A stretch of 64,000 bases of DNA from positions 96,001-160,000 of the forward strand of contig CAVSUE010000001.1 in NCBI GenBank assembly GCA_963731265.1. The letters run 5' to 3'. The notes under the pieces are model-generated. The model saw nothing but the letters and a program-made list of their open reading frames with translations, searched no databases and had not been told where the DNA came from. Source of the stretch: an uncultured Verrucomicrobiae bacterium. Lineage in GTDB: Bacteria; Chlamydiota; Chlamydiia; Chlamydiales; Rhabdochlamydiaceae. Below, in pieces: positions 20,188 through 21,331 of this stretch. The first letter of the stretch is position 1; every line of letters begins with the position of its first letter. Position numbers and translations under genes: made by a program.

Positions 20188-21331
20188 TTTTTTCTCCTAG
20201 ACTGCGCCCAGCCCGTTTCCGCGAATTTTGACTGGCTGCGACTTTGCCCAATCGATCCTTCTCGTCAGCCGTTCCAATCTCTTCGGAGTTTGAACTCCGA
20301 GGAGACCTGCAACCATCCTTTAATGGTTGCAGCCCTATTCGGGAATTGTCTTCCTCGCTCGGCCGCTTCGTTTCGATTTGGCTTAGTCTCGCTGAGTCAA
20401 AATTTGCATAACTCGGCTGGGCGCAGTCTAAGACAAGAGACAGCAAAGCCATGCGGACATAAAGGCCGTTTTCCGACTGCTGAAAATAGTAGGCAAAAGG
20501 GGTTTTATCGATGCTGAGCTCGATTTCATTCACACGCGGCAATGGATGGAGGATTTTGAGATTTTTCTTCGCTTGTTTCAGCATGTCTTTCTTGAGGATG
20601 TACGTGTCTTTGCATTTTTCATAAATCGAGGCGTCGAGGCGCTCTTTTTGTAATCGCGTCATGTAAAGGATATCGACTTTGCCGAGGACTTCTTCCATGT
20701 TGCGATGGAACGAAAATTTGATTCCCTGTTTTTTGAGGAATCGGCTGATTTCATCCGGAAGCATCAGCTGTTCGGGGGATACAAAAAAAAGGCGCATGTC
20801 GAAATGGGTGCAAGCCACACTCAGCGAGTGGACCGTGCGTCCGAATTTTAGGTCCCCGACAAAAGCGAGGTTGAGCCCCTTGAGCTTCTTTTGACACTCC
20901 TTAATCGTGAAGAGATCGAGCAGAGTTTGTGTCGGATGTTGATTGGCCCCATCGCCGGCATTGATGACCGGTTTGGTCGTCGCTTCGCTCGCGGCGCGGG
21001 CTGCCCCCTCGCTCGGATGGCGCAACACAATCACGTCGGCATATGCGCCTATCACTTTCATGGAATCCTGGAGAGATTCCCCTTTTTTCGCCGAGCTCAA
21101 TCCCGCGTCGTCAAAGCCGATAACGCTACCGCCAAGGCGGATCATCGCCGCCTCAAAAGAAAGCCGTGTCCTGGTCGACGGTTCGTAAAAGCAGGAGGCT
21201 AAAATTTTATGCCTCAAGAGTTCGTTGGGTGCCTTTTTTTTCATCTCCTCTGCACGTTTTAAGATGAGAAGAATTTCATCCTTTGTCAAATCGGCGATCG
21301 AGAGGAGGCTGCGTTGGTGAAGTGGGTTCAT
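20180..21331 (-). CDS. pyrB: Aspartate carbamoyltransferase catalytic chain with a 77-aa in-frame palindromic-element insertion near the C-terminus
   Basis: FYEPSTRTRLSF, HPTQ, HPLPR, VRMALL; 383 aa, or 306 aa with the element removed. Confidence 0.96.
   Translation of the reverse strand: MNPLHQRSLLSIADLTKDEILLILKRAEEMKKKAPNELLRHKILASCFYEPSTRTRLSFEAAMIRLGGSVIGFDDAGLSSAKKGESLQDSMKVIGAYADVIVLRHPSEGAARAASEATTKPVINAGDGANQHPTQTLLDLFTIKECQKKLKGLNLAFVGDLKFGRTVHSLSVACTHFDMRLFFVSPEQLMLPDEISRFLKKQGIKFSFHRNMEEVLGKVDILYMTRLQKERLDASIYEKCKDTYILKKDMLKQAKKNLKILHPLPRVNEIELSIDKTPFAYYFQQSENGLYVRMALLSLVLDCAQPSYANFDSARLSQIETKRPSEEDNSRIGLQPLKDGCRSPRSSNSEEIGTADEKDRLGKVAASQNSRKRAGRSLGEKNG
20198..20430. mobile_element. 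RPE/MITE-like palindromic element inside the pyrB coding sequence
   Basis: 36-bp terminal IR TAGACTGCGCCCAGCC...AATTTTGACT (30/36), TA at both ends, two internal hairpins at 20278-20332. Confidence 0.9.

Follow-up and report, generated by a model that had tools for sequence, protein, structure and literature searches.

A palindromic element of a dispersed family inserted in frame near the end of pyrB in a chlamydial genome

The window analyzed here, 64,000 nt of contig CAVSUE010000001.1 (positions 96,001-160,000; assembly GCA_963731265.1, an uncultured Verrucomicrobiae bacterium assigned by GTDB to the Rhabdochlamydiaceae), carries a palindromic element near the 3' end of pyrB, the gene for the catalytic chain of aspartate carbamoyltransferase (ATCase). 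Together with its duplicated TA, the element occupies window positions 20198-20430. The insertion, the family to which it belongs, the empty sites and the frame and length properties of the copies are established here. Our interpretation, to which we assign a probability of roughly 0.88, is that a non-autonomous element resembling a MITE (a miniature transposable element with inverted repeats) inserted in frame near the end of pyrB and is read through as a 77-residue hydrophilic appendage, with the operon layout preserved. Read-through would follow because the gain is a multiple of three and the phase that places the target TA at codon positions 2-3 is free of stops, and the layout is preserved because the insert sits just upstream of the pyrI ribosome-binding site. 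Below, G000 denotes the genome under study and C1 its contig; G001, G002, G003, G005 and G033 are related genomes.

The pyrB insertion and its empty site

An earlier note on this DNA had described a 233-bp segment with TA at both ends and a 36-bp terminal inverted repeat (30/36), which we reproduced on the sequence. By manual count, 30 of 36 positions are identical, including the first 16 and the last 10, when the left end (TAGACTGCGCCCAGCC...) is compared with the right end in reverse complement. A repeat search found a longer inverted repeat with 64-nt arms (20192-20255 and 20373-20436, 75% complementary) as well as two inner hairpins (20278-20305 and 20297-20342). The left terminal inverted-repeat module extends over 20198-20255, based on the repeat search, 32 aligned family ends and an nhmmer match (E = 2.3e-14), and the right module over 20373-20430 (repeat search; nhmmer E = 4.7e-17). 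The two inner hairpin modules together span 20278-20342 and are common to the family copies at pyrH, priA and folC described below; these features, like the element as a whole, are unstranded. A 237-nt stretch folds end to end both as RNA (-122.5 kcal/mol, z = -11.9) and as DNA (-64.4 kcal/mol, z = -11.3), and no shuffled sequence folded as well as the pyrB element (0/200 for RNA, 0/200 for DNA). No promoter or terminator was predicted in the element, and an Rfam search of it gave no match, the sole hit being a chance-level snoZ247 (E = 0.32) outside the element.

The pyrB open reading frame (ORF; 20180-21331, minus strand) encodes 383 aa, including the 77-aa insert after residue 301, and its coding strand reads what we call the 'A' strand of the element. 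The product carries the Pfam domains OTCace_N and OTCace and scores 375 bits against the TIGR00670 equivalog model (cut-off 236.95), with residues 7-301 on profile positions 1-303 of 304. Residues 2-302 align with residues 2-305 of the E. coli ATCase catalytic chain (310 residues), and the insertion point corresponds to E. coli residue 305/310. Because this alignment ends at 302/305, the insert lies between the last helix and a short tail of variable length in the orthologues. The frame is open across the insert, as the note had claimed; of 5000 dinucleotide shuffles, only 240 (4.8%) are stop-free in that frame. Removal of 231 bp had been said to restore a normal C-terminus, and it does: the shortened product has 306 aa and ends in ...RMALLSLVLGEKNG followed by the stop, matching PyrB of G003 and G002, both of 306 aa and ending in ...LSLILGEKNG. 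The native tail, GEKNG plus the stop codon, now lies 3' of the insert (20180-20197, minus strand). The start of pyrI, which encodes the ATCase regulatory chain (19726-20187, minus strand; Pfam PyrI and PyrI_C), overlaps the pyrB stop (ATGGCTAA), and both this start and the overlap are unchanged, again as the note had it. The Shine-Dalgarno sequence of pyrI, GGAG at 20194-20197, is left intact inside the native pyrB tail, and the insertion point is immediately 5' of it.

The closest relative searched, G003 (PyrB 94% identical in amino acid sequence), aligns to both flanks without the 231 bp and with a 3-nt overlap, TAG; its empty site reads TTTTAG up to the insertion point and GAGAAAAAAATGG beyond it. 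Exactly 231 bp are likewise missing from two metagenome contigs of other samples, one of run X3 (3702 nt) and one of X5 (1182 nt), which differ from the window at 32/620 and 47/620 aligned positions, respectively. The empty sites, together with other family members, delimit a 229-bp MITE-like core (20200-20428), flanked by one TA at 20198-20199 and a second at 20429-20430, both assigned from the sequence, the G003 empty site, the TA flanks of most family copies and the clean TA duplication at the lpxK copy. The net gain is 231 bp, i.e., the core plus one TA, or 77 codons. The earlier note had proposed alignment with chlamydial orthologues as a check, and the outcome agrees with an insertion: none of the 18 PyrB orthologue ORFs of relatives, with identities from 94% down to 47%, carries the insert, and each of the 18 orthologue-level matches breaks off at residue 301-310. 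Short-read contigs from two further runs of two different studies, X1 (199 nt) and X2 (151 nt), cross the filled left junction, each with a single mismatch.

The element family in the genome and in relatives

We searched C1 for related copies by BLAST and with an nhmmer profile of the terminal module, which gave 40 hits that resolve into 15 paired copies and one solo end. The existence of related copies elsewhere, another check proposed from the sequence, is thus borne out: besides many in relatives, there are 15 full copies in this genome, and in-frame fusions to genes account for six of these. The terminal modules are about 60 bp long, with the consensus TATACCGCGC...GAATTTGGACT...GCAAAATCGA at each end, whereas the inner hairpin modules differ from copy to copy, giving lengths of 171 to 357 bp. 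In most copies a TA stands on either side. The family has the attributes by which MITEs are recognized, namely small size, no transposase gene, terminal inverted repeats, target duplication and dispersed copies. The pyrB copy is unique in the genome, being at most 92% identical to other copies and having termini of its own; its inner core is 90-92% identical to the copies at genome positions 50986, 517317 and 848243.

The lengths and reading phases of the copies are compatible with coding. Inserted length is divisible by three in 12 of the 15 copies (binomial P = 2.9e-4), and in 5/8 of those not associated with genes (P = 0.09). Denoting as A0 the phase in which the target TA falls at codon positions 2-3 on the 'A' strand and as B0 the equivalent phase on the other strand, we counted 8 stop-free copies in A0, 8 in B0, 5 in B2 and 0 each in A1, A2 and B1. 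All six fusions to housekeeping genes are in phase A0. The element lies 5 aa before the end of the product in pyrB, inside the LpxK domain and 39 aa before the end in lpxK, C-terminally in nusB, and just after the start in priA, folC and rnr. These fusions encode a conserved peptide, YRAQEGFVNLDSARQSKIEAKRP...DRFGKAAASPNSQNLTERGI, both conserved ends of which simply result from in-frame reading of the terminal repeats. The 'A' strand is the coding strand in 7/7 gene-associated copies, the pyrH copy included (two-sided P = 0.016). For the pyrB copy, the A0 peptide is strongly hydrophilic, with a grand average of hydropathy (GRAVY) of -1.15, 14 K+R and 12 D+E, whereas the B0 reading has a GRAVY of -0.08, 23 bulky hydrophobic residues and 4 Cys, a difference that offers a simple reason why the A strand survives in genes. 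A Pfam search of both phase-0 translations and an NCBIfam search of the coding-strand insert peptide returned no family.

The copy between tsf and pyrH (G000:C1:50955-51191; L002:1470-1706) is open in both A0 and B0. We rejected it as an in-frame fusion: the final ~50 nt of the element are read as part of pyrH in a different, third phase, the gene being readable only from an internal TTG within the element. The native first codons of pyrH appear to have been displaced.

Three sites could be compared with G003, those at pyrB, lpxK and nusB, and all three are empty there, with flanks about 93-98% identical. Target duplication is clean in two of the three, TA(G) at pyrB and TA at lpxK. Because all three tested sites are empty in G003, the family is, judged from these alignments, recently active.

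In the genus, a profile of the peptide matched 13 of 19 genomes, with at least 80 peptide-level matches in G001. Across the family, matches at E <= 1e-6 were found in 27/129 genomes representing 7/40 genera. An even sample of the phylum gave matches in 19/400 genomes, restricted to the window's own family (12/89) and one sister family of the same order (6/69), with none in the other 241 genomes of that sample. A peptide pattern scan of 185,579 species returned 51 loci, all from metagenome-assembled genomes (MAGs) of the chlamydial lineage, whose titles name Chlamydiae, Rhabdochlamydiaceae, Rhabdochlamydia, Parachlamydiales, Parachlamydiaceae, 'Verrucomicrobia(e)' or 'uncultured bacterium'. In a collection of 5.8 billion proteins, at least 71 proteins of 180-2000 aa carry the peptide (E <= 1e-5), a floor because only 8000 candidates were scored. 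They span unrelated Pfam architectures, including MutS, BamA, P-type ATPase, histidine kinase, PtsI, thioredoxin and glycosyltransferases, and those source names that bear an organism point to Rhabdochlamydiaceae only.

The 78 loci retrieved from relatives yielded 77 paired elements, with duplicates between the two locus sets; they were retrieved with the A-strand peptide and are therefore unusable for strand statistics. From these we picked 30 paired elements in long open frames, 29 of them distinct, and ran Pfam on 27 together with five G000 hosts, which named 25/32 host proteins. In a RecC host the element lies between the Exonuc_V_gamma and RecC_C domains. Other hosts in relatives include DnaX, an isochorismate-synthase-like (MenF-like) protein, an FtsX-like permease, UDPGP and LpxK, as well as MiaB-like, TilS-like and TsaE proteins. 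In a family-3 glycosidase from a MAG of the same lineage (L093:2504-4240, minus strand), the element separates the N- and C-terminal domains, in frame and in B orientation; at least once, then, the less hydrophilic B reading has been tolerated as well.

Contig C1 of G001 holds dozens of copies of ~170 bp (e.g., 998667-998837 and 1144615-1144784) whose terminal module is 95-98% identical to that of a G000 copy. A G001 subfamily with an early TGA in the A0 frame occurs almost only in short open frames. Together these suggest that bursts occurred recently and that subfamilies are not equally compatible with coding.

Consequences for PyrB and alternative explanations

In an AlphaFold2 model of PyrB built from 17 sequences, residues 1-304 adopt a confident ATCase fold with the last helix at 282-301, while residues 305-383 have a predicted local distance difference test (pLDDT) score below 50 and no secondary structure. 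All columns that are invariant across the 17 aligned sequences are kept. We infer that PyrB would remain functional with a disordered C-terminal appendage. The PyrB of G033 (L046:1420-2415, minus strand) ends in an unrelated tail of ~30 aa (...DLFEEEIFQETLNTKELLTTMENHL) that does not belong to the palindromic family, and the PyrB C-terminus thus tolerates extensions in another lineage too.

Downstream of pyrB lie pyrI, then a dihydroorotase-like gene (18515-19735, minus strand) and a DHO_dh-like gene (17419-18624, minus strand), all intact, forming a pyrB-pyrI-pyrC-pyrD-like string. Taken from its first TTG, the DHO_dh-like ORF overlaps the dihydroorotase-like ORF by 110 nt, and its true start therefore probably lies further downstream. 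Directly upstream of the pyr operon, window positions 21560-23689 (minus strand) encode a 709-aa protein of eukaryote-like architecture, with WD40 beta-propeller repeats after an N-terminal F-box (PF00646, E = 1e-6).

Several observations weigh against our interpretation: (i) Either X1 or X2 may be the source sample of this genome assembly. (ii) The right junction is bridged by no independent contig, and its exact 36-mer is unmatched in metagenome contigs. (iii) The nusB copy, although its site is empty in G003, represents a net gain of 267 bp and lacks a clean TA duplication. (iv) No autonomous partner was found, the ends of the resident IS630-family insertion sequences (ISs) being unlike those of the element. 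(v) Among the termini listed for G001, G002 and G005, there is no inverted pair of family termini at a spacing of 0.7-3 kb. (vi) The low pLDDT of the insert is partly expected, as the other rows of the alignment do not cover it. (vii) In the RNA fold, the element stem base pairs with the first bases of the pyrI GGAG, which could impair pyrI initiation. Given this pairing, we infer a possibly greater dependence of pyrI initiation on ribosomes that come from pyrB.

An operon on its way to loss, in which a real but harmful insertion impairs PyrB or the expression of pyrI, seems unlikely to us. The pyrB frame is intact over 383 codons, where about one shuffle in twenty (4.8%) would have stayed open; every invariant column is kept, the TIGR00670 score is well above its cut-off, the insert comes after the last structural helix, and pyrI and the pyrC-like and pyrD-like genes are intact. 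The pairing of the stem base with part of the pyrI Shine-Dalgarno sequence nevertheless fits such decay, as does the finding that pyrB was not detected in 18/41 related genomes searched, the pathway being dispensable in parts of the group. The insertion is also young, its site being empty in a 94%-identical relative, so that selection may not yet have acted.

We also considered whether the element has been domesticated at pyrB, so that the RNA hairpin or the peptide is functional, for example in setting pyrB/pyrI stoichiometry or as a shared tag. The peptide was examined through codon-position variability in a protein-guided alignment of 79 copies, a procedure that itself leans towards a third-position signal. 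Variability at codon positions 1/2/3 is 0.72/0.75/0.86 bits when all 79 copies are taken and 0.72/0.72/0.92 when only the 45 lying outside long ORFs are; the third-position excess is weak and not specific to genic copies, and we see no convincing sign of protein-level selection on the peptide. Its conservation is explained most simply, on these sequences, by the terminal repeats. A lineage-specific, young insertion, host proteins that are functionally unrelated and a peptide with no Pfam or NCBIfam family likewise make domestication improbable, even though the very stable hairpin lies right next to the pyrI ribosome-binding site, and even though phase 0 of the family is free of stops on either strand and lengths are mostly 3n, intergenic copies included.

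The earlier note had raised an assembly artefact as a possible refutation, i.e., a repeat misplaced in pyrB during assembly or binning. Repeats are typical misassembly sites, and the right junction is the one without an independent contig. We regard an artefact as very improbable, however, given that two contigs of two studies cross the left junction with one mismatch each, that X3 and X5 skip exactly 231 bp, and that the gain is exactly this length at a TA, with target duplication, the frame preserved and a copy sequence unique in the genome. An ancestral extension lost in other lineages, in favor of which we found nothing, is refuted by its absence from all 18 orthologues (94% to 47% identity) and by the membership of the segment in a dispersed repeat family with target duplication.

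Mobilization, significance and comparison with known systems

Taken together, the data point to the in-frame insertion of a non-autonomous element, which probably proceeded as follows. After the split from the closest sampled relative, the element inserted at a TA five codons before the pyrB stop, presumably transposed in trans by a transposase of the IS630/Tc1-mariner type. The 231-bp gain, being a multiple of three with no stop in phase A0, would place 77 hydrophilic residues between the last helix and the native five-residue tail; the insert would be translated and enzyme activity retained. Copies in general may survive as selection removes gene-breaking insertions and spares those in a tolerated strand, phase and position, such as protein ends and linkers.

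TA duplication combined with terminal repeats is a property of IS630/Tc1-mariner-type transposition, and by this analogy the TA targeting of the family suggests that a transposase of this type acts in trans. IS630-family (DDE_3) transposases are present in 4/5 genus genomes searched, with 15 matches of identical score in G001. The 1233-bp IS of G000, with ends CCTAGTG..CTTAAAGAAAG, bears no resemblance to the element ends, only about 6 terminal bases are common to the G001 IS and the element, and a terminal-module nhmmer search of six IS loci gave no hit at E <= 10. No full-length IS with family ends was seen in G000. A 1231-bp IS630-family IS with ~37-bp terminal repeats (G000:C1:718732-719962) is nested in the right end of an element copy (718452-718735); a 96.6% identical copy of 1233 bp lies at 394874-396106, and partial copies occur at ~1436450 and at the start of C1.

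Until now, housekeeping genes that carry 'selfish' palindromes in frame have been nearly unique to Rickettsia, whose elements are known as Rickettsia palindromic elements (RPEs). Finding this habit in Chlamydiota, in a family unrelated in sequence, would point to convergence, for which life in compact intracellular genomes may be the driver. The family also supplies another model, recently active and with well-defined empty sites, in which to study the movement of such elements and the ways in which proteins put up with added segments or put them to use. In chlamydial MAGs, insertions of this kind lead to inflated and distorted protein families and gene calls. The copy in pyrB lends itself to testing, since few allosteric enzymes are understood as well as ATCase and E. 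coli can serve as the assay host. A bolder proposal, which we offer tentatively and with more doubt than confidence, is that the family is shaped for life inside genes: its hairpin modules would keep 3n lengths, with phase 0 open on both strands and one strand encoding a hydrophilic, disorder-prone peptide, and it would spread in gene-dense environmental chlamydiae by hiding in coding sequence, where it would repeatedly give rise to protein tails and interdomain linkers, as a second, independent RPE-like strategy. The hairpin at pyrB might in addition tighten pyrI-pyrB coupling.

Among known systems, MITEs derived from IS630/Tc1-mariner elements share the TA target duplication and terminal inverted repeats, and transposases of this type are present in the genus, but the element ends are unlike those of the resident IS630-family ISs. 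The Correia or NEMIS elements of Neisseria are likewise small MITEs with terminal inverted repeats, TA target duplication and a long RNA hairpin. Unlike the present family they are mostly intergenic, with effects through promoters, IHF sites and RNase III. To our knowledge, their mobilizing transposase has not been identified, and we know of no systematic in-frame fusions; the likeness is by description only.

QMITE1 and QMITE2 of Coxiella burnetii overlap functional genes at their 3' ends and can make proteins longer, for instance by a 33-aa EnhC tail in strain Dugway (PMC5896051). They too are MITEs of an intracellular bacterium that extend proteins, yet they form a weaker parallel than the RPEs: the overlaps described are short (1-50 bp) and most supply a stop, whereas here the whole element is read through, also at N-termini and between domains. 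REP and BIME palindromes, 20-40 bp long (PMC3733652), lack a target duplication and were ruled out by the 171-357 bp length of the chlamydial copies and by the TA duplication.

The closest parallel is with the RPEs, which measure about 150 bp and fall into ten families, with 44 insertions in R. conorii, nearly half of them in ORFs (PMC10969869), and number 526 in R. bellii, 53 of them in protein-coding genes (PMC1458961). The two share much: both are short palindromes of an obligate intracellular lineage, inserted in frame in unrelated housekeeping genes, with a conserved peptide and many intergenic copies. They differ in host phylum (Alphaproteobacteria for RPEs, Chlamydiota here), and the chlamydial element is longer and modular (171-357 bp), with ~60-bp terminal repeats and a demonstrable TA target duplication. 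There is no sign of sequence kinship with Rickettsia in the peptide searches, as distinct from a direct comparison with RPEs; both the 185,579-species scan and the protein collection led to the chlamydial lineage. The word chlamydia does not occur in the MITE review (PMC10969869), and full-text literature searches, in a limited collection without supplements, gave no description of such an element in Chlamydiota, in keeping with the earlier note, which knew of none. That note had proposed an RPE-like, protein-coding palindromic element in a chlamydial lineage, a description that is apt as an analogy rather than as a statement of sequence relationship. By this analogy, the family is a new, sequence-unrelated, coding-compatible palindromic MITE, comparable in its habit to the RPEs.
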